From Candidatus Levyibacteriota bacterium (GTDB taxonomy: Bacteria > Patescibacteriota > Microgenomatia > Levybacterales > UBA12049): DNA of 64,000 bases. The stretch's first letter is position 1. The number at the start of each line of letters is the position of its first letter. The stretch lies in NCBI GenBank assembly GCA_003152105.1, contig PLZJ01000002.1, positions 469,682-533,681 of the forward strand. The letters are read 5' to 3'. Position numbers and translations under genes: made by a program. Shown here piece after piece: positions 1 through 60,076 of the stretch. The notes below the pieces were generated by a model. It did not search any database. It was not told the DNA's origin and saw only the letters and a list, made by a program, of their open reading frames with translations.

Positions 1-245
1 TTCTAATGCAAATCGATTCCATGTGTGCAATAACTATTTTAAGCACCGGTACAACGAATCAGTGGTCTTGGGCTAGCAATGAAGATGGAATAAGTAACAA
101 TAAAATCGTGCTTTATTTATCTTCTGGAGTGCACGAATTAACGCTTGCAAGTGGAGATACAAATGTAAGTATAGATGCATTATTATTTACACAGGACAAT
201 AAATGTCGTCCAATTGGGCTTGGTGGTAACTGCACTCCACAATAA
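1..245 (+). CDS. C-terminal fragment of a protein whose start lies upstream of the window (ORF open to position 1); unknown function
   Basis: ORF in frame from window edge, stop at 243-245; no recognisable motif. Confidence 0.3.
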   Translation, partial: LMQIDSMCAITILSTGTTNQWSWASNEDGISNNKIVLYLSSGVHELTLASGDTNVSIDALLFTQDNKCRPIGLGGNCTPQ

Positions 246-263
246 GTGCTATTCATAGATAAC

Positions 264-292
264 TTGCAAATCACACCATTTAGTTGTATAAT
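264..292 (+). promoter_or_regulatory. sigma70-like promoter TTGCAA-17-TGTATAAT (extended -10) upstream of marR-like gene
   Basis: TTGCAA at 264-269, 17-nt spacer, TATAAT at 287-292 preceded by TG. Confidence 0.45.
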
Positions 293-296
293 CAAA

Positions 297-315
297 TAGT
301 TAGATAGTCTAACTA
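297..315 (+). promoter_or_regulatory. Perfect 8-3-8 palindrome TAGTTAGA-TAG-TCTAACTA, candidate MarR operator
   Basis: Perfect inverted repeat between -10 box and start codon (321) of MarR-family gene. Confidence 0.45.
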
Positions 316-320
316 AATAT

Positions 321-770
321 ATGGCAAGCACAATTAACGAAACTCTCATTGATCAATTTTACTCTATATCTTCTTTAATTAAGCACAAGTCTTTGTTTTC
401 TCAAGCAGCGATGGAGTTAACATTACAGCAAATTCATGCTCTCTCTTTTATTCAAAAAAATAAAAGCGTAGCAATGCATCAAATAGCTGATTATTTCCAG
501 ATTACATTGCCTACTGCAACAATACTAGTTGATAAATTAATCGCACAAAAGTTGGTTACAAGAGTACATGATACGTCTGATAGACGTATAGTACGCATAG
601 CACTTTCTTCACACGGAGTGACATTACTGGAAAAGGCGAAAAAAATTAGGAATAAAAAAGTTAATCTTCTTTTATCTCATCTTTCGCTTTCAGAAAAAAA
701 AACCTTGCTAACTATATTTAAAATATTGCACAATAGAATGGAGGTAGAAATTGAAACAAAACAGTCATAA
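321..770 (+). CDS. MarR family transcriptional regulator
   Basis: Winged-helix MarR-like region (LTLQQIHALSFI...IADYFQITLPTATILVDKLI..RV.DTSDRR); first gene of efflux operon. Confidence 0.8.
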   Translation: MASTINETLIDQFYSISSLIKHKSLFSQAAMELTLQQIHALSFIQKNKSVAMHQIADYFQITLPTATILVDKLIAQKLVTRVHDTSDRRIVRIALSSHGVTLLEKAKKIRNKKVNLLLSHLSLSEKKTLLTIFKILHNRMEVEIETKQS

Positions 771-32750: not shown

Positions 32751-33398
32751 TTACACAGCTACGTATAGTGAACTAATTATCGGTAGTATATCTTTTATAT
32801 CAGACACAACAAACTCTGGATTACATTTTGCTATTTCGTTTTTGTGAAATCCATATGCTGCGCCAATTGTTTTTACTTTTGCATTTTTCCCAGCTTTGAT
32901 GTCAACATCAGTATCTCCTATCATTACCGCAGATTCTTTTGAGACACTTAAGAAACGCAGCGCTTTTTCTATTCCTTCTGGATCTGGTTTTTGTTTCAAG
33001 ACATCTTCACTCGTTAAAAGCAGATCTAAAAACGGAAAAATTCCAGCTCTTTTGAGGGTTGATGTTGCAGTTTTATTTGATCTTGTGGTGAGCGCAACAA
33101 TAAGAATGTGTTGTTTTTTTAGCGTTTCGAGAACTGAAAGTGTATTGGTAAAGGGAACAGATAGGAAAAGATGTTTTTTCTGGAAATCGCGGTGCAATGA
33201 AATAAGTTTTGATACATCTTTTTTTCCTGTTAAACCGATATAGCAATCTGCAAGTGGTTTTCCAATGTATGGACGAATTTGTTCTCTTGAAACATCTAAA
33301 AACCCTTCCTTTTTAAGGGTAAATGCAAATGCTTGAAAAATAAATTCAGTGGTATCCAGAAGCGTTCCGTCAACATCAAAAAGAACGAGTGTGATCAT
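32751..33398 (-). CDS. HAD-superfamily hydrolase (phosphatase); start at internal Met MITLVLFDVDGTL
   Basis: HAD motif I FDVDGTLLDT, motif IV GDTDVDIKAG; upstream ORF extension is low-probability. Confidence 0.7.
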   Translation of the reverse strand: MITLVLFDVDGTLLDTTEFIFQAFAFTLKKEGFLDVSREQIRPYIGKPLADCYIGLTGKKDVSKLISLHRDFQKKHLFLSVPFTNTLSVLETLKKQHILIVALTTRSNKTATSTLKRAGIFPFLDLLLTSEDVLKQKPDPEGIEKALRFLSVSKESAVMIGDTDVDIKAGKNAKVKTIGAAYGFHKNEIAKCNPEFVVSDIKDILPIISSLYVAV

Positions 33399-33558
33399 AC
33401 TCAGATTATAGCAAAATACAATACGAAGATTTGGGATTGAGTGCGGGCAAGTTGTTTGTTTTGAAGGTTTTCTCGATAGAGAAGAACGGTCATTGCAGAC
33501 AGAGCTTGCCTCGCGTGCACTCATTTTGTTGCGGGAATGTTATACATGCAGCCGTTGC

Positions 33559-33864
33559 TTATAGTGGTCTTCCATGGAGTGCATCATCGTAGCTTTGTGA
33601 TCTGATTGCTTCGCCTAAAGATTGAACGTCAGCATGCTTAACCTTTGTTAGTTCGGAGACTGAAACATTGATGCAGTCGGCGAAAATACCGGTTACGTAG
33701 TGTGGAGCACGTTCACCTCTTGAGATGACATGAAGTATGATTACTTGAACTTGACCTTTTTTGGTTTGTTCATCTAATACTGAAACGATTGATCGTTCGG
33801 CATGCTTCTCATTGTTTACGTTCCTTTCGAGAATGTAAATTTCGTCGACTTCGACTCTATCCAC
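33559..33864 (-). CDS. Hypothetical protein (GC-rich islet 1)
   Basis: ORF; local G+C visibly above window background. Confidence 0.3.
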   Translation of the reverse strand: MDRVEVDEIYILERNVNNEKHAERSIVSVLDEQTKKGQVQVIILHVISRGERAPHYVTGIFADCINVSVSELTKVKHADVQSLGEAIRSQSYDDALHGRPL

Positions 33865-33909
33865 AATAGTTCCTTTCTATGTTGTTAGTTGAATTTGAAA
33901 AAGATCTAT

Positions 33910-34233
33910 CTACAAATGCCAAACCAAATTTGCCAGTAGCACGAGTGTCACAAAGCAAATAACAGAACCGATGAGTGTCCACCATGACAGCTTCACTGTT
34001 CTTCTGTTCGTAGGATATCGACGGGTTTCTGGTGTACCTGCAATATAATTCAACAGCAAAAAGAATGCTGAAACGAGAATAAAGCAGGCGCAAACACAGG
34101 CTCCAAAAATGGCGACTATGTACTCGATTATGTTAATCATCGTCTTTCTCCTTCTGTTTGTATGTTGTGCTGCGAAGGCAAATCCTACGTACTCAGCTTT
34201 GCTTATGTTTGTATCGCGTATCCATCTGGCCAT
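33910..34233 (-). CDS. Small hypothetical membrane protein (GC-rich islet 1)
   Basis: Two TM segments; likely starts at internal Met MINIIEY. Confidence 0.3.
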   Translation of the reverse strand: MARWIRDTNISKAEYVGFAFAAQHTNRRRKTMINIIEYIVAIFGACVCACFILVSAFFLLLNYIAGTPETRRYPTNRRTVKLSWWTLIGSVICFVTLVLLANLVWHL

Positions 34234-34628
34234 CTCACATTGATCGTACCATCTCCTACTCTGAAGAAATCAAATACGTCCAATCCAAACAAGCCAACAG
34301 AGAGCGAGACTTTACATCCGGTGGTTGGGCACAGATCTACAGTAGAACTACAATCTATTCCAGAGCAGTCAACGTGGATCGTGTTTTCTCCATCGTATGT
34401 TATTGTGTAGGTTGTATCGTACTTATCTTGCGAACTTATGACGAGTTGTCCACCAACTGGTACATTGGCAAGGTTATTACCAACAATTGAAACGCCGCTT
34501 GACCTTGGTTGACAACTTTCTAGCCAAACGACAAGTCCGACAATAAGAACGATAGTAGATACGACGAGTCCAAAGGCAGAAATATAATAACGCATGCATT
34601 TCCTTTTGTTCTTTTTAGTAAGCGACAT
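34203..34628 (-). CDS. Membrane-anchored Cys-rich hypothetical secreted protein (GC-rich islet 1, first gene)
   Basis: N-terminal TM; 8 Cys in ectodomain. Confidence 0.35.
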   Translation of the reverse strand: MSLTKKNKRKCMRYYISAFGLVVSTIVLIVGLVVWLESCQPRSSGVSIVGNNLANVPVGGQLVISSQDKYDTTYTITYDGENTIHVDCSGIDCSSTVDLCPTTGCKVSLSVGLFGLDVFDFFRVGDGTINVRWPDGYAIQT

Positions 34629-34654
34629 ACTACGTATAGCTTTATACGCACAAT

Positions 34655-34798
34655 ATCACTTACTAAATGTGTATTTTTCCGCAACTTGTGAATGTGCAAA
34701 TGAAAAAAAACAAGATATAAAATGCTTATTTCTATAACTGTCTTTTAGCCATGGGAGTATAGCAGAATAAAGAGAGCACTTCAAGTGCTATAGGATTA
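34655..34798 (-). promoter_or_regulatory. Conserved repeat element copy 1: minus-strand promoter (TTGAAG-17-TATACT, TG-extended) plus conserved ~120-nt 5' leader
   Basis: 15-mer TTGTGAATGTGCAAA and blocks GGAGTATAGCA.AAT / CAAGTGCTATAGGATTA shared with 49433-49563; ATCACTTACTAA shared with 63134-63145. Confidence 0.5.
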
Positions 34799-34902
34799 TT
34801 TGCGTTATTATTTTTCGTACAATAACTTTTTATCCTTATATTACTCTTATATGTATATTTATTACTTGACTTACCGAAACAATTACATTGTAATTAATAC
34901 AT

Positions 34903-36262: not shown

Positions 36263-36590
36263 AATGAGAGAGAGTTTTGTCCTATAAGGAAGTAAAAGGG
36301 GTATGCAAGCTTTTGCACACGTTTTACATTCCCTAAGGAGAGGGTCTGTGGTAACACCACAGTATCACCACAGACCCTCATTCGGTTGTCGACCCAGGAT
36401 TACCCTAGATCAACATTCCACTTCTTGACTGAACGTTCAAGTCTTGCCCACGTGTTAGTAGACTCAACTCTATCGTACAGCTCAAGAACCGTACTGAGAA
36501 GAGAAAAAGCCTGTAGTAATTAAAAACATCATTATTTTAGCTATTAATTTTTCATAAAGGAAAGTGGAGTAAATGAAGGAAAAAAGAATT

Positions 36591-36670
36591 GGGGCTGAGT
36601 GATTTTGGATTAAGCTAAGAAGCTACGGCTGCTTACGCAGAAATAGATTTTTGCTTGGTCACTCAGCCCC
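36591..36670 (-). terminator. Hairpin (12-bp GC-rich stem GGGGCTGAGTGA / TCACTCAGCCCC) followed on minus strand by a T-rich run; candidate terminator of 36689..36973
   Basis: Perfect 12-bp inverted repeat with a ~56-nt loop; AATTCTTTTTTCC follows on the minus strand. Confidence 0.35.
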
Positions 36671-36688
36671 TACGTGTGTTACGAACGA

Positions 36689-36973
36689 TTAGAATTCAAA
36701 CTTGACAGATCCTTGTCGATCTTTGGTCGAAAAATGGACGCTGATATTCCCGAAATCGGCGTTGTAGCCATAAATCATCCAGGATTCTCCGCTGCCGTTT
36801 TCTCGATGGACTCCTTTGATATACATGATAAATCCGGTAACGTAAGTAGTTGTTTTAATGTCAAAATACATAAAACGCGTTCCAGACTCACCATCAAAAA
36901 GGTTGAGCATGAGATCGAACTTGGATGGGCCTGCAATGACGGGATACATCTGATCGGTCTGGATAAGAGACAT
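36689..36973 (-). CDS. Hypothetical protein (GC-rich islet 2)
   Basis: ORF. Confidence 0.35.
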   Translation of the reverse strand: MSLIQTDQMYPVIAGPSKFDLMLNLFDGESGTRFMYFDIKTTTYVTGFIMYIKGVHRENGSGESWMIYGYNADFGNISVHFSTKDRQGSVKFEF

Positions 36974-37091
36974 ACGTCCCTCCTTCTATGGCTAATCTGC
37001 GAAAACGGCAGAAGCGCTGTTGCACTGATATTCATCAGTACCACCTGAATTTCGATCCAGGAATTAAATGGTGCCCCTCAGTAGATTTCGA

Positions 37092-37472
37092 CTAGTTGCT
37101 ACTTGTCCACTGAATTTTGCCATCTCTTGTGATCACACAGGAAATGAATTCACCCTCGATCAGCAGTGCTGAGACTGATAGATCGTTTTGGGAAAGGTTA
37201 AAGCTTCGAGCACAAAGCGCAGCCCAGGTATGAGCTAACCAGGTTAACTGGTTCTCATAAAGACTGCGAAGCTGATTAAAGCCAGGGCTTCCCAAAAGCG
37301 GATTGACGAGCGTGACATTGTCGAGAAGAACCTTTCCTTGACCTTGAGGCAAATGAGCCCTGAAATCAGTGATGATCTCATCAGGCGCATGCTTCATATA
37401 GTCTTGGGCTTCAGGTCTCCACGAATCTCGGGCGATGAATCGATTGGTAAAACGAAACGAAGGTAATCGCAT
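37092..37472 (-). CDS. Hypothetical protein (GC-rich islet 2)
   Basis: ORF. Confidence 0.35.
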   Translation of the reverse strand: MRLPSFRFTNRFIARDSWRPEAQDYMKHAPDEIITDFRAHLPQGQGKVLLDNVTLVNPLLGSPGFNQLRSLYENQLTWLAHTWAALCARSFNLSQNDLSVSALLIEGEFISCVITRDGKIQWTSSN

Positions 37473-37707
37473 GGCAGCATCCTTTCTATAAAGTTTTATC
37501 TACTGAGGAGCATTCTAAACACAACATATGTTCACAATGCCACTCAGTAAATTAACACACGTACTATAAAAGAGCTACGAAAAGTTTGGATACGCAGCTT
37601 TTGCCTATCGTCCTTTTTCGTCTTGGAATTGTAGCAAAAAGAGGCACAACAGTCAACTACTACAGGATAAAAGAACCGTTACCACAAGGGGACAAGTAGT
37701 AGTAATA

Positions 37708-46910: not shown

Positions 46911-47702
46911 CTATTTAGCTTTAGGAAATTGAAATGAATTTACCATTTGTGTAAATAGATTATCTTGGTTACTTGCGCTTTGAATATACATTTCATAGGT
47001 TGACCCATTGTAATAGGCATATGCTGCATCAGTTATTCCAGGAATAGACCCTTGTGTTAGAAGGAGTACGGGAACACCATTTACCGTAGTATCTGTTTGA
47101 TTTTTAAACGCTTTTGGACTTACGCTACTGTCGTTTGATGCATTTTCTAAAAAGGTCTTATAACTTTGATAAGAGCTAAAATTATTGTTTGCCTCAATTA
47201 AAATAGTAAGTTTTGAGCCTGTTAATACCACAACATGCACTGGATCCGCACTGTTTACCGTATAATCTGGCGACGTAAAATCATACCCATTTACTGATGA
47301 AACATCTTGATTGTTTGCTGATTCGACCCAGTTTGAAGGATAGTTAAGAGTAAAATGTAAGCTTGCATCACTATAATTTTTCCAATTAGTAGTTTGAGCA
47401 GAAGTTGAAGAAGCTGATGGGTTTTGTGCACCTGGTGGTTGTATAGTAACAGGAGGAATGCTTTTAGTTTTTACTATGGTTTGCACTGGATTTGAAGTAA
47501 TACTTAGTTGCCCTTGCGCTTTTCCAACCATATAGAAAATGACACCTGATACAAGTGCTGCAAGCAGACAACAGAGCAGAATTAGAATTACTCTTGGAAA
47601 ATGAAAATGCTTGGAAACAATTGGAGGTTCTTGCGTTGCAGGTTGTTGGGTAACAACAGGTTGCGGTTGTTGAACTGGCTGTTGTTGAACAGAATTATCC
47701 AT
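46911..47702 (-). CDS. Membrane-anchored surface protein with Q/P-rich N-terminal tail (paralogous anchor module to 8863..9552)
   Basis: HFPRVILILLCCLLAALVSGVIFYMVG matches HIPRILLVLFACLISGVLFGVAGYF. Confidence 0.4.
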   Translation of the reverse strand: MDNSVQQQPVQQPQPVVTQQPATQEPPIVSKHFHFPRVILILLCCLLAALVSGVIFYMVGKAQGQLSITSNPVQTIVKTKSIPPVTIQPPGAQNPSASSTSAQTTNWKNYSDASLHFTLNYPSNWVESANNQDVSSVNGYDFTSPDYTVNSADPVHVVVLTGSKLTILIEANNNFSSYQSYKTFLENASNDSSVSPKAFKNQTDTTVNGVPVLLLTQGSIPGITDAAYAYYNGSTYEMYIQSASNQDNLFTQMVNSFQFPKAK

Positions 47703-47897
47703 ATCTATACTATTCCATAGTTACCAGTATTAGTCAAGAAAAGCTCAAGGAGGTAGAGAATGTTAAAACAAGGATTCTAAGTTGTGGGTAATGTTTTAAG
47801 AATGGACGCGAAGGGTAGACTACAATATGTAGTAAAGGTCAATTGACCACTACCCAACGCGATGCGTCCACTCACAGAATGTGCTGCGGTTTTGCCG

Positions 47898-48266
47898 TTA
47901 GGCTTTTTGAAGAACCAGTCCCTTTACCCTTTCAGGTTCGAGAGTACTGCCTCCAGGTGGGAAGAAAACGCCACGTTCGCCGACGAATGCGACAGAAAAA
48001 GCGAGTCGATCGTCACTTATTACGTTGAAAGAGGTGACCATTAGGCTCGCAAAGTACCTGAGACGTTCTTCATCGGTGACAGCAAGCCAGTCAAAATCTT
48101 CTGTCGCCTCGGCGAGCCATTTGTAGGTTACGTAGAGGTACTGATTGTCCTCTTCGCCCTCGATCCATGCGCGCTCGACTTCTCCCCGAGTAACAGGTTC
48201 GCCAGAGCATTGTCTTTCGAGTTGTCCTCCTGCGTAGTGTGCGAGAACTTCGTTTGTGATTTTCAT
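47898..48266 (-). CDS. Hypothetical acidic protein (GC-rich islet 3, gene 3 of 3); start at internal Met with RBS
   Basis: ORF; GAAAGGAAAC RBS before MKITNEV. Confidence 0.3.
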   Translation of the reverse strand: MKITNEVLAHYAGGQLERQCSGEPVTRGEVERAWIEGEEDNQYLYVTYKWLAEATEDFDWLAVTDEERLRYFASLMVTSFNVISDDRLAFSVAFVGERGVFFPPGGSTLEPERVKGLVLQKA

Positions 48267-48297: not shown

Positions 48298-48930
48298 TTA
48301 GTGTTGGTGTACAGCAAACGAATCAGGATCGAATGCTTCGACGGCTCGGTCGGGCGTGATGGTGACAGTCTTGGCTTGGGCATCTACAGCATTGATCGTG
48401 AAGATCTGTTGCTTGGTCTTGCCCAACTGGAAAGGTGGAGGCGTTGTTTGCTTTGGAAGAACCTCAGCTAGCATCGCCAGCACATATCCTTGGACGCTGA
48501 AAAGACTCGGAGTCAGGACGAAGGGAGCAAACGGATCTTCAAGAAACGCTATTCCTTCTCCTTCAATCTCAAGCTTAACGAGTGTCGAAGATTTGTCGCC
48601 TCCAAGCGGTTTGAGATAAATGGGATTTCCTTCGGAAACCACGAGTTGTCCCAGGTCTGAGGGCTCAAACTGAGTCCTTAAGTTTCCTGGACGAATAACT
48701 CGTTCGTTTCCGCATGAACAGCGTTTTTCGGAACCTTCCCGAACTGCATCCCAGCGAGGATCAGTAATTCCACTTCTTCCTCCTGGAAGTTCGACGTAGA
48801 CGTTCTGGGTCAAGTCTGCTCTCTGCTCAACGAGCAAATTGCAGGCCGCCAGATACAGTTCTTCGTCGAATTGAGTTCGGTCTGTCTGAACTCCACGAAC
48901 GTACGAAATTGCGTCTTGGACTGTTTCCAC
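48298..48930 (-). CDS. Hypothetical protein (GC-rich islet 3, gene 2)
   Basis: ORF. Confidence 0.35.
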   Translation of the reverse strand: METVQDAISYVRGVQTDRTQFDEELYLAACNLLVEQRADLTQNVYVELPGGRSGITDPRWDAVREGSEKRCSCGNERVIRPGNLRTQFEPSDLGQLVVSEGNPIYLKPLGGDKSSTLVKLEIEGEGIAFLEDPFAPFVLTPSLFSVQGYVLAMLAEVLPKQTTPPPFQLGKTKQQIFTINAVDAQAKTVTITPDRAVEAFDPDSFAVHQH

Positions 48931-48982: not shown

Positions 48983-49333
48983 TTATGCCTGTGAGTGAGC
49001 CTGTTCTGCGTGTCTTCTGATCGCAACTGCGATGCATGATCCTCTGGCAGCGAGACCTTCTCGGACCGCCGTCTGCATTGGTTGATCGTAGCCCCTTATA
49101 GTGAAGAGAGCATTGAACTTGGTATACAAGTCCTCAAATCTCTTCGTTAGGGCTCGCATCTTCAACGCCGTATCGTCGTCCACATGAGCAACGAGCTCTT
49201 GGGAGACTGGTTGGTCGGACGGAAGCAGAATTGCCAGTTGTGCCTCCACTTGGTCTAGCTCCACAAGGATTTCTCTGCCTTGTTGGCAAACCTCGTCGAA
49301 GTCATAACCGAGCTGTAGGTATTGTAGCTTCAT
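48983..49333 (-). CDS. Hypothetical protein (GC-rich islet 3, gene 1)
   Basis: ORF. Confidence 0.35.
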   Translation of the reverse strand: MKLQYLQLGYDFDEVCQQGREILVELDQVEAQLAILLPSDQPVSQELVAHVDDDTALKMRALTKRFEDLYTKFNALFTIRGYDQPMQTAVREGLAARGSCIAVAIRRHAEQAHSQA

Positions 49334-49432
49334 GAGTACTCCTTTTTATTGTTATTTGTTCTTTCCTTAACCTGGGAAAGAAAATAGGCATAAATACCCA
49401 CTTTCTTCCTCAGGCTAATTGGGAACAATGTA

Positions 49433-49563
49433 CCGCAACAAATTGTGAATGTGCAAAAATAACTAAAATTAGCACGAAATAAACTGCTTATGTCTAAATA
49501 TGCTAATTTTTAGTTAAAGGAGTATAGCAAAATTAAAGATCTCTAACAAGTGCTATAGGATTA
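49433..49563 (-). promoter_or_regulatory. Conserved repeat element copy 2: minus-strand promoter TTGTTA-17-TATACT (TG-extended) plus conserved leader with 13-bp-stem hairpin
   Basis: Shares ~80% identity over ~120 bp with 34679-34798; leader contains ACTAAAAATTAGCA ... TGCTAATTTTAGT inverted repeat. Confidence 0.5.
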
Positions 49564-49633
49564 GATTTAAGTTAAATGAAGCTTGCAGTAGTGGAAGATG
49601 TTAGAACCTTATTTTACTAAAGTTTTATTTTAA

Positions 49634-50335
49634 TTAAAGTATTGAAGTAGATAATTGTTCCCATTGTTTCTTTCTTAAAGTTAAGTCTGGATTAGTCTCT
49701 ATGATTTTCTTTGCCTTTTCCAAGTATTCCCTAGCTTTATTCTGGTCATCATTCTTTATTATATTTGCAATTCTCATATACCCTCCTGCTACCCAAACAT
49801 CTTTGCTGTATTTATTTGGTGCATCATCAGACGCTTTAAGTTCTTCCAAAGCTTTTTCAGCTCTTTCTAAAGCAGTTTTATCTCCAGCTTTATATTCACA
49901 AGTTGCTAGATGAACTTTCATATCTGCTAAAACTGAATTTCTTTTATGTGTTTCTGGAGGATTATTTTCCATGTTTTCCACTGCTTCTTTATATGATTTT
50001 ACCGCTTCATCAAATTCTCCTAAGTCTTCCTGTAGTTCTGCAAGATTATATAGTGGTATTCCAAGAGATTCTTTAATACCACTTTGCCTTGCTAAATCAA
50101 CAGAAGCTAGCATTTCATATTTTGCTAAAGTTAATATTCTTTTGCTTTTGTGCAAGCTGCCATAAACTCTTAGGGTTATAGAACGACAAGCAAGACCTTC
50201 TGAAAATCCTAAGTCATCATTTTCTTTGTCATAAGCAAATAATGCATCATCATTAAAGGTTAACGACTCTGTAAACTGCTCTTTTTCTCTCGCTTTTGCA
50301 GCATTACCATGTAATATTCTTCCTTTACTTTGCAT
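49634..50335 (-). CDS. TPR-like helical repeat protein
   Basis: Repeated A..Y...A...EAV / KA.E.L TPR-like helices. Confidence 0.45.
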   Translation of the reverse strand: MQSKGRILHGNAAKAREKEQFTESLTFNDDALFAYDKENDDLGFSEGLACRSITLRVYGSLHKSKRILTLAKYEMLASVDLARQSGIKESLGIPLYNLAELQEDLGEFDEAVKSYKEAVENMENNPPETHKRNSVLADMKVHLATCEYKAGDKTALERAEKALEELKASDDAPNKYSKDVWVAGGYMRIANIIKNDDQNKAREYLEKAKKIIETNPDLTLRKKQWEQLSTSIL

Positions 50336-59350: not shown

Positions 59351-60028
59351 TTAGTTTGTACGCTCAAAGGTGAAGTTTATGCTATAAACACTTGACTCAT
59401 CTCCATATTGATTTTTATATTGTAGCTGGAGTGTATTTGCTCCATTTGGCGGTGAATAACAAAGTGTTGAAAACGCTTGATAATCATTCCATCCTGCGTT
59501 ATTAATATTTTGTTTTCTCATAAGTCCACTCGTATCTCCACCTCCTGGTGCGTCAACAACACAAAATGTTTGTGAAGAATTCATGCTAATTGATTGACCG
59601 TTTGTTGGATAGGTAATATTCATTTGAGGAGGATTAGAAGTATGTGGAGATGAAGTAGGAGTTGGGGTAACTGTTGGCGTAGGAGAGAGTGAAGGTGTTG
59701 GAGTTAGGGTAACTGTTGGAACTTGTGTTGGACTTGATTGTTGTATTTGATTACTTGTTTGCGAATCGGGTACTGGTGTATCTGTTGGTGCCTCTGTAAT
59801 GCTTGGTGCTTCGGTAGTTTGGGAACTTGTCTTACCTCCTCCTTTACTACCAAAAATATATGTTGCTCCAGAAAATACAAGCACGATTGCAAGCAAAACA
59901 AGAGATACAATACTTTTGTTATGTTTTAACCACACAACATATTTATTTTGAAAACTGAGTTGTTTTAAAAGTGGTGTATTATCTAGTTCGACTTTCTCGT
60001 TTTGATCTTCTTGAGGGGAATCTTTCAT
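59351..60028 (-). CDS. Membrane-anchored surface protein, PT-rich linker, unknown C-terminal domain
   Basis: N-terminal tail + TM (SIVSLVLLAIVLVFSGATYIFG) + TPTP linker. Confidence 0.4.
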   Translation of the reverse strand: MKDSPQEDQNEKVELDNTPLLKQLSFQNKYVVWLKHNKSIVSLVLLAIVLVFSGATYIFGSKGGGKTSSQTTEAPSITEAPTDTPVPDSQTSNQIQQSSPTQVPTVTLTPTPSLSPTPTVTPTPTSSPHTSNPPQMNITYPTNGQSISMNSSQTFCVVDAPGGGDTSGLMRKQNINNAGWNDYQAFSTLCYSPPNGANTLQLQYKNQYGDESSVYSINFTFERTN

Positions 60029-60076
60029 TCCTATACTATTCCATATAGTGCCTAGTATGTCAATATATTGGTAGCT

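Follow-up and report, generated by a model that had tools for sequence, protein, structure and literature searches.

The window, as we call the whole stretch of 64 kb that was analyzed, carries on its minus strand a set of three small genes that stands apart from its surroundings in base composition. The genes lie at 48983-49333 (116 aa), 48298-48930 (210 aa) and 47898-48266 (122 aa), and all three are called genes on the source scaffold, which is metagenomic and ~1.14-1.15 Mb long. A first-pass annotation had described them as a GC-rich operon behind the second copy of a conserved leader element. That description of the genes stands, with a GC content of 0.50-0.51 against 0.357 for the window and a GC3 of 0.45-0.54. 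The product of the first gene is an ORFan, which matched only itself and one partial sequence among 1.8 billion representatives. The second belongs to a family of 8 homologues that has neither a Pfam nor a structural match (an AlphaFold model with a pLDDT of 80 found nothing in the PDB), and the third falls into no family. On the upstream side, ~70 nt separate the end of the TPR gene (49634) from the start of the conserved element. We refer to the three genes as the cargo of unit 2, and to the conserved sequences at their two ends as its frame.

The front end of unit 2, at 49432-49563 of the minus strand, consists of a sigma-70-type promoter, a bulged hairpin of 13 bp and a box, TTTGCACATTCACAA..GTTGCGG. 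The promoter (49521-49549), located by a promoter scan, has the -35 element TTGTTA, a 17-nt spacer and the TG-extended -10 element TATACT. An upstream box, TAATCCTATAGCAC (49550-49563), lies 1-4 nt 5' of the -35 element and has the form CCyrTAG; it is identical in copy 1, and related boxes (CCTGTAG, CCCATAG and CCTATAA) precede the -35 element in all related units. The outermost conserved block (49521-49563) is thus promoter and not RNA, so that the transcribed leader is predicted to begin at ~49514-49520. The earlier idea that the whole repeat is a leader therefore holds for the hairpin and the box and fails for this outermost block, while conservation of the predicted transcript itself gains support from a promoter at the equivalent position in both window copies.

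The 5' stem-loop (49461-49515) begins at the predicted transcription start or a few nt from it, and has two tiers. The arms ACTAAAAATTAGCA and TGCTAATTTTAGT form an outer stem of 13 bp around a 26-nt loop, as first described, with one bulged A, and a 5-bp inner stem presents the loop AUAAGCA. The outer stem is rich in A-U and G-U pairs, and a U-rich linker is present. With RNAfold the leader folds at -19.5 kcal/mol (z = -3.7), a stability equalled by none of 200 shuffles. The box past the linker, which we call D (TTTGCACATTCACAATTTGTTGCGGT, 49432-49457), is the 5' partner of a predicted long-range helix, with 19 of its 26 nt paired to the 3' partner D' in the global fold. The 27-mer TTTTTGCACATTCACAATTTGTTGCGG at 49433-49459 occurs once in the window, with 0 occurrences expected by chance. 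Closer to the genes are another hairpin, GGAAGAAAG..CUUUCUUUCC (49375-49409), which differs between units and shows no conservation, and the Shine-Dalgarno sequence AAGGAG with the ATG of the first cargo gene (49331-49347).

Searches for more familiar elements in this leader came back empty. The terminator scan called no terminator-like site at 49200-49800, and the promoter scan found neither a second promoter between hairpin and operon nor a plus-strand (antisense) promoter or small RNA in the leader. Rfam 15 at its gathering thresholds returned no match, and hence no tRNA, rRNA or other known RNA, anywhere in the 64-kb window. Permissive scans of both window leaders gave noise alone (miRNA and snoRNA models, E >= 0.47), and none of the related loci L010, L011, L013 and L014 matched at E <= 0.1. 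An aptamer-like multi-helix core with invariant unpaired nucleotides, as expected of a riboswitch, is absent; each leader has just one hairpin, its loop varies from unit to unit, and the genes behind it are unrelated. A leader peptide running through D was also considered and dropped when inspection by eye showed no conserved ORF.

The leader turned out to be only the front half of the frame. An imperfect inverted copy of D, the D' box ACCGCAGCACATTCTGTGAGTG (47869-47890), lies directly after the cargo genes, 8 nt past the last stop codon, and is the best partner for D of all windows scanned (-26.8 kcal/mol). It abuts a structured, terminator-like domain (47798-47873, z = -3.4), in which a stem GAGUGGACGC..GCGUCCAUUC followed by UU encloses two hairpins. 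The leader-only reading of this locus thus keeps its hairpin and loses its completeness, given that box D is predicted to pair with the 3' UTR. In all units D' sits 8-25 nt past the last stop codon, against a GC-rich terminator-like domain. The consensus there is CCGCAAC..GUGGAUGUGCA, followed by a GC-rich multi-hairpin domain with a U-rich tail; several units have GNRA-capped hairpins in this 3' domain, which is itself a recognizable family.

The same window holds two further units, both on the minus strand. Unit 1, the first copy, was recovered at ~34644-34807 by a relaxed blastn self-search (69% identity, E = 1e-16), and shares with unit 2 four exact blocks, TAATCCTATAGCACTTG, TGCTATACTCC, ATAAGCA and TTTGCACATTCACAA (17, 11, 7 and 15 nt), that are unique to the two sites. 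Its box and promoter (34756-34798), hairpin (34700-34752) and D (34679-34700) follow in the same order; the hairpin has the topology of that in unit 2 with a weaker stem (z = -0.6 with RNAfold). Its cargo (33559-34628, GC3 0.34-0.45) encodes a membrane-anchored protein of 141 aa, a two-helix membrane protein of 107 aa and a protein of 101 aa, and is followed by D' (CCGCAACAAAATGAGTGCA, 33516-33534) and a 3' domain (33426-33522).

Unit 3 (36580-37666) is more diverged, was picked up by a pattern for the promoter class, and appears to have been missed in the earlier two-copy description. It has a CCTGTAG box with the promoter TTGACT-17-TACAAT (37628-37666), an A/U-armed hairpin (37577-37621) and the D-equivalent TACGTGTGTTA (37553-37563), and its cargo (36689-37472) encodes ORFans of 126 and 94 aa (GC3 0.46 and 0.48). 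Its D' TAACACACGTA (36671-36681) is a perfect 11-bp complement. The 3' domain beyond, GGGGCUGAGUGA..CUGCGUAAGCAG..UCACUCAGCCCC with a U-run (unit 3 D' and 3' domain together, 36580-36681), is matched by the covariance model R1 at E = 4e-27 and is close to the domains of L010, L013 and L014. A genome can hold several units: three lie within 16 kb of the window, two are in tandem in L011, and two are on L009. The second unit in L011 (~1-740, minus strand) has a D-like box, GGCACATTAACA, and at L009 the 3' end of the second unit (1-430, plus strand) has the D' sequence UCGCAACAAUGUGG and matches model R1 at E = 0.011. We also noticed that the CCyrTAG box of units 2 and 1 (49550-49563 and 34785-34798) resembles the extreme end of the 3' domain in other units, for example CACCCUAUAA. 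The flanks of the three window units show short matches of unequal length (5, 6 and 7 nt) by eye, which may be chance in AT-rich DNA or the trace of an insertion.

Outside the window, a metagenome scan for TTTGCACATTCACAA(0-3)GTTGCGG found six contigs that reduce to four distinct sequences, from four other metagenomic organisms. Each of the four has a promoter preceded, right before the -35 element, by a CCyrTAG box, and then a hairpin of two tiers whose 5' arm is rich in A and whose 3' arm is rich in U, a U-rich linker and the box used in the scan, while the stems themselves are very different. The original claim depended on whether the hairpin is conserved in other copies and genomes, and it recurs, with differing stems, in every related locus. 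Plain MAFFT alignment with RNAalifold missed it because the stem sequences cannot be aligned. A covariance model made from two of the relatives was used in place of these programs, and recovered all six box-bearing leaders as well as the diverged leader of L017.

The resulting alignment of seven leaders bears out the suggestion that the stems vary in ways that preserve structure. Given that the alignment was fitted to the model structure, the scores should be read with this caveat: the share of cells that pair is 83%, compared with 64% in shuffles, both sides have changed in 15 of 20 pairs, none of 500 shuffles reaches the observed values, and the covariation score is 0.44 for the hairpin against <= 0.13 for slid controls. 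Sense-strand folds are also more stable than antisense folds (in 7 of 8 units, and -118.7 versus -86.7 kcal/mol when summed), a sign that the structure is one of RNA and not of DNA. Every unit has a hairpin that folds; by itself it is no more stable than shuffles in L011 (z = 0) and unit 1 (z = -0.6).

The family is small, with about ten units. Box D is identical over 22 nt across organisms in which promoters and hairpins have diverged, an invariance that is partly by design because six of the units were found by exact match to D. It is also more conserved than D', and pairing alone gives no account of this difference. Since an invariance of 22 nt exceeds what pairing needs, D probably contacts a protein or another RNA as well.

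Scans of other collections added little. In the genome collection of species representatives, the pattern GCTATAMT..TGCACATTCACAA, which is too strict on the -10 element, had only 3 matches (Campylobacterota, Clostridia), taken for chance uninspected. Among viral contigs a 14-mer had 120 matches, all chance-like with the best one inside a capsid gene, and the 3' motif had none. In phage and plasmid collections nothing matched the leader at the DNA level or the 210-aa cargo at the protein level.

The most informative property of the frame is the complementarity of its two ends. When RNAduplex was used to scan from -3 to +5 kb, D:D' was the top duplex in 7 of 7 well-defined units and always fell at the end of the cargo. 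Cofolds of the 5' and 3' ends form D:D' with a ddG of -12 to -19.5 kcal/mol. In the global minimum free energy folds of the full predicted transcripts (0.9-1.7 kb), the helix spans 0.7-1.6 kb and forms in all seven, with 11-20 nt paired; of 36 random window segments of similar length, 34 had no such pairing, and the highest value was 8 nt, so that all stayed below 11. The mismatches in D' are mostly compatible with G-U pairs on the sense strand, where the duplex is the more stable one in 5 of 6 units.

The sequence of the helix is not fixed. Most units pair GUUGCGG+UGCACAUUCAC with CCGCAAC+GUGGAUGUGCA. Unit 3 pairs UACGUGUGUUA with UAACACACGUA, 8 nt past the last stop codon; this duplex ranks first of 2605 windows, and all 11 nt pair in the global fold. 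L017 pairs UACGGAAAGU with ACUUUCCGUA in its 3' UTR, a duplex that ranks only fourth in the scan, and in L140, where the leader has diverged, the D' partner is weak and not the top-ranked duplex. The same two positions are thus taken by three unrelated helix sequences, of which two occur in one genome. That different D/D' pairs occur at these positions argues for RNA pairing over a DNA site recognized by protein, and neither a single site-specific recombinase nor a single transcription factor would tolerate such differences. The 3' half of D' has, in several units, an alternative partner in the tail of the 3' domain, so that D:D' may be one of two states and not a constitutive clamp. A long-range antitermination scheme, in which D and the terminator tail compete for D', was considered in this connection; it fits L010, L011, L014 and units 1 and 2, and was not taken as a general mechanism because unit 3 and L013 do not fit.

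Our reading, held with slightly better than even confidence, is that each unit is self-contained and has a two-part RNA frame, a panhandle joining 5' UTR and 3' UTR that would control the stability or processing of the mRNA. The structural claim, namely pairing of D with D' in the RNA as predicted from the folds, is one in which we have high confidence. The functional claim of control over mRNA stability or processing, reached by analogy with the systems discussed below, would merit moderate confidence. In this model, the sigma-70-type promoter with its CCyrTAG box just 5' of the -35 element would start the transcript, and the first 55-65 nt would fold into the two-tier stem-loop at the extreme 5' end. 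After a short U-rich linker, D would pair over 0.7-1.6 kb with D', which lies 8-25 nt past the last stop codon and directly against the GC-rich terminator-like domain. With the 5' stem-loop, the D:D' helix and the terminator domain in place, the mature mRNA is predicted to be a closed panhandle with both of its ends in helices. The frame would then set the lifetime or processing of the mRNA, either by blocking decay that depends on the 5' end and exonucleolytic decay from the 3' end, or by offering a double-stranded site of the RNase III type. Under either option, the expression of small genes gained by horizontal transfer would be controlled.

Pairing between the two UTRs of one bacterial transcript has precedents, and it is because of hbs, icaR and RNAIII that mRNA stability or processing was chosen as the mechanism. 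In the hbs mRNA of Bacillus subtilis, a 14-bp pairing of the 5' UTR with the 3' UTR inhibits cleavage by RNase Y within the leader (Braun, Durand and Condon 2017, PMC5737220). There, as is predicted here with 11-22 bp, part of a structured 5' UTR pairs with the transcript's own 3' UTR near the terminator. Unlike the frame, which is a multi-copy module with a shared promoter and 5' hairpin around unrelated foreign genes, the hbs arrangement belongs to a single housekeeping gene. The icaR transcript of S. aureus and RNAIII also have 5'-3' pairing within one transcript, and the icaR pairing creates an RNase III substrate (PMC7821165). The long-range helix joining both UTRs of one transcript is the common feature, predicted in our case. 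The two differ in that in icaR it is the ribosome-binding site with which the 3' UTR pairs, so that translation is blocked, whereas D keeps a distance of 50-100 nt, on the upstream side, from the Shine-Dalgarno sequence and leaves it uncovered. Complementary 5'- and 3'-UTR segments that are predicted to pair, as in the hbs and icaR type, were thus found in 7 of 7 units, with pairing in the global fold of all seven and of 0 of 36 controls. Another relative in form is the type I toxin mRNA of the hok/sok type, in which an fbi-tac 5'-3' fold-back closes the full-length mRNA. End pairing is again shared, and L011 and unit 1 do encode small membrane peptides; unit 2, in contrast, encodes soluble proteins of 116, 210 and 122 aa and has no antisense promoter in its leader, so that only the fold-back is in common.

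Among the alternatives, the one that survives best is a cis-regulatory attenuator, in which the 5' hairpin and U-run terminate transcription unless a protein, small RNA or ligand binds D, and the 3' complement is incidental or secondary. We consider it improbable. The run of A-rich 5' arm, U-rich 3' arm and U-rich linker in every hairpin is what such a device might look like, and so is a box kept invariant beyond the needs of its pairing partner, but the terminator scan passes over the 5' hairpin, with its loops of > 8 nt and too few G-C pairs. The loops are not conserved, no aptamer-like core is present, and Rfam is empty even at permissive E-values; above all, attenuation leaves the covarying 3' partner unexplained.

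A DNA-level reading is less probable still. Here D and D' would be the inverted repeats of an invertible or exchangeable cassette (inverton, integron-like or MITE-like), and a recombinase would move or flip the GC-rich cargo. Inverted repeats around compositionally foreign, non-homologous genes, several times per genome, would suit such a cassette, as would the position of some homologous cargo beside tRNA genes, once with a partial tRNA duplication. The geometry argues otherwise, since promoter and hairpin lie outside the repeats, which are therefore not terminal, and conservation runs ~115 nt upstream of D and ~100 nt beyond D', unlike in a MITE or IS element. An inverton would be expected to have identical repeats that one enzyme can use, and both orientations in a population; the repeats observed are inverted but imperfect, with G-U-type mismatches and indels between the arms, the sense strand gives the better fold, and the repeats of units 1 and 2 are unrelated to those of unit 3 in the same genome, which a single recombinase would not tolerate. 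Integron cassettes, in arrays or scattered, carry small ORFs that are unrelated and of odd composition, and behind each lies attC, a structured imperfect palindrome. Conserved shape with variable sequence is a shared trait, and CCGCAAC/GTTGCGG loosely recall the RYYYAAC/GTTRRRY boxes, but each unit here has its own promoter, and the boxes flank the ORFs, where those of an integron sit inside a single attC, and vary within a genome. All of the ~ten cargos are in sense orientation, the larger neighboring genes that were scanned include no integrase, transposase or other recombinase, no consistent target-site duplication was seen, and the plasmid and phage collections hold no match.

Putative mobile promoters are highly similar promoter regions found, in one genome or across several, ahead of genes that are not homologous (Matus-Garcia et al. 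2012, PMC3488235), and the units do have such regions, with the exact blocks of 17, 11 and 15 nt in units 1 and 2 and the frame in four other organisms. It is very doubtful that the frame is nothing else, that is, a passively propagated promoter whose hairpin and box have no function at the RNA level. Unlike in a mobile promoter, the shared module runs on into a structured leader with a matching partner in the 3' UTR of every unit, which a passive copy would not be expected to have, and pairing is kept while the stems diverge. Last, a separate small RNA of ~65 nt, made from the promoter, hairpin and U-run ahead of independently transcribed genes, has the order of parts of a small RNA gene in its favor and is highly unlikely, because there is no second promoter between hairpin and operon, D as the most conserved block lies past the U-run, and the terminator scan passes over the hairpin. 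None of these alternatives accounts for the covarying partner D' as well as the mRNA frame does.

Returning to the panhandle frame, what it encloses is varied. The proteins inside the frames show no similarity to one another on mutual comparison. With the exception of an ACP-like PP-binding domain in L010, none has a significant Pfam, PHROGs or PADLOC match. Besides this ACP-like protein there are small membrane peptides (L011 and unit 1) and several ORFans, and in unit 2 and several others the products are soluble, acidic and 90-210 aa long. Cargo GC3 in the window is 0.34-0.54 against 0.19-0.25 in neighboring genes, and a local rise in GC at the cargo is also seen in other loci. That the cargo is uniformly richer in GC than the host is one feature that the frame model leaves unexplained. 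Nor is the frame tied to the 210-aa gene family, because only some homologues carry it: it is diverged but present at L140 and L017/L018, and absent at L015, L016, L019 and L141. This family has a conserved gene-proximal hairpin of its own (..CCACACG-GNRA-like-GUGUG..) before the ribosome-binding site (L140 450-520; L016/L017 3900-3990), which is independent of the frame.

Neither Rfam nor the literature, both of which were searched, holds a family or a paper describing such a two-ended frame. Interaction of a 5' UTR with a 3' UTR is known, as is the mobile promoter concept; the new part is a shared multi-copy frame with two ends, having its own promoter, 5' stem-loop and structured terminator, around unrelated foreign genes. 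It wraps unrelated, compositionally foreign ORFan sets three times in the window and also occurs in several uncultured lineages. We put forward, as a tentative extension that falls well short of probable, that this may be an undescribed modular element: a portable expression frame that captures or travels with foreign small genes and spreads among uncultured bacteria with reduced genomes, several per genome, with D as the point of contact for a dedicated factor that binds or processes RNA. If the frame model is true, it would show how bacteria with small genomes install and control horizontally acquired genes. It would also add a pair of RNA motifs, now searchable with covariance models, to the catalogue, and provide a compact natural expression cassette in which simple compensatory mutations would suffice to test the 5'-3' clamp.

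The units are set among housekeeping genes (a HAD hydrolase gene, ruvAB, riboflavin genes and PBP1A). Homologues of the 210-aa gene adjoin tRNA genes at L016 (3700-4000), L017 (3640-3760) and L140 (1340-1430), and L016 has a partial duplicate of the tRNA 3' end of a kind typical of integrated elements. Downstream of unit 2 is a gene of 263 aa with no homologue beyond itself. The host genes beside the units (~33390-33420 and 47700-47745, minus strand) look leaderless: the HAD hydrolase gene has TGCTATAAT followed 6 nt on by ATGATCACACTCG (MITLVLFDVDG), and the 263-aa gene has TAGTATAGAT immediately 5' of its ATG. The cargo genes, unlike these adjoining host genes, have long structured leaders and AGGAG ribosome-binding sites. 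A mechanically called ORF of 257 aa for the HAD hydrolase (32751-33524, minus strand) overlaps the 3' domain of unit 1. Translation probably begins instead at the ATG further downstream, which yields MITLVLFDVDG, in which case annotation by the longest ORF would hide the RNA element.

Elsewhere in the window, a direct repeat of 38 nt (47682-47719 and 60008-60045, 76% identity) contains a promoter-like stretch and a start-codon region (..CTATACTATTCCATA, plus strand), and may be another shared promoter or a leaderless start motif. Many large ORFs in the window have no Pfam domain, and SET, ICMT/PEMT, TPR and CAP-like domains are present; this gene content suggests a host-associated bacterium with a reduced genome.
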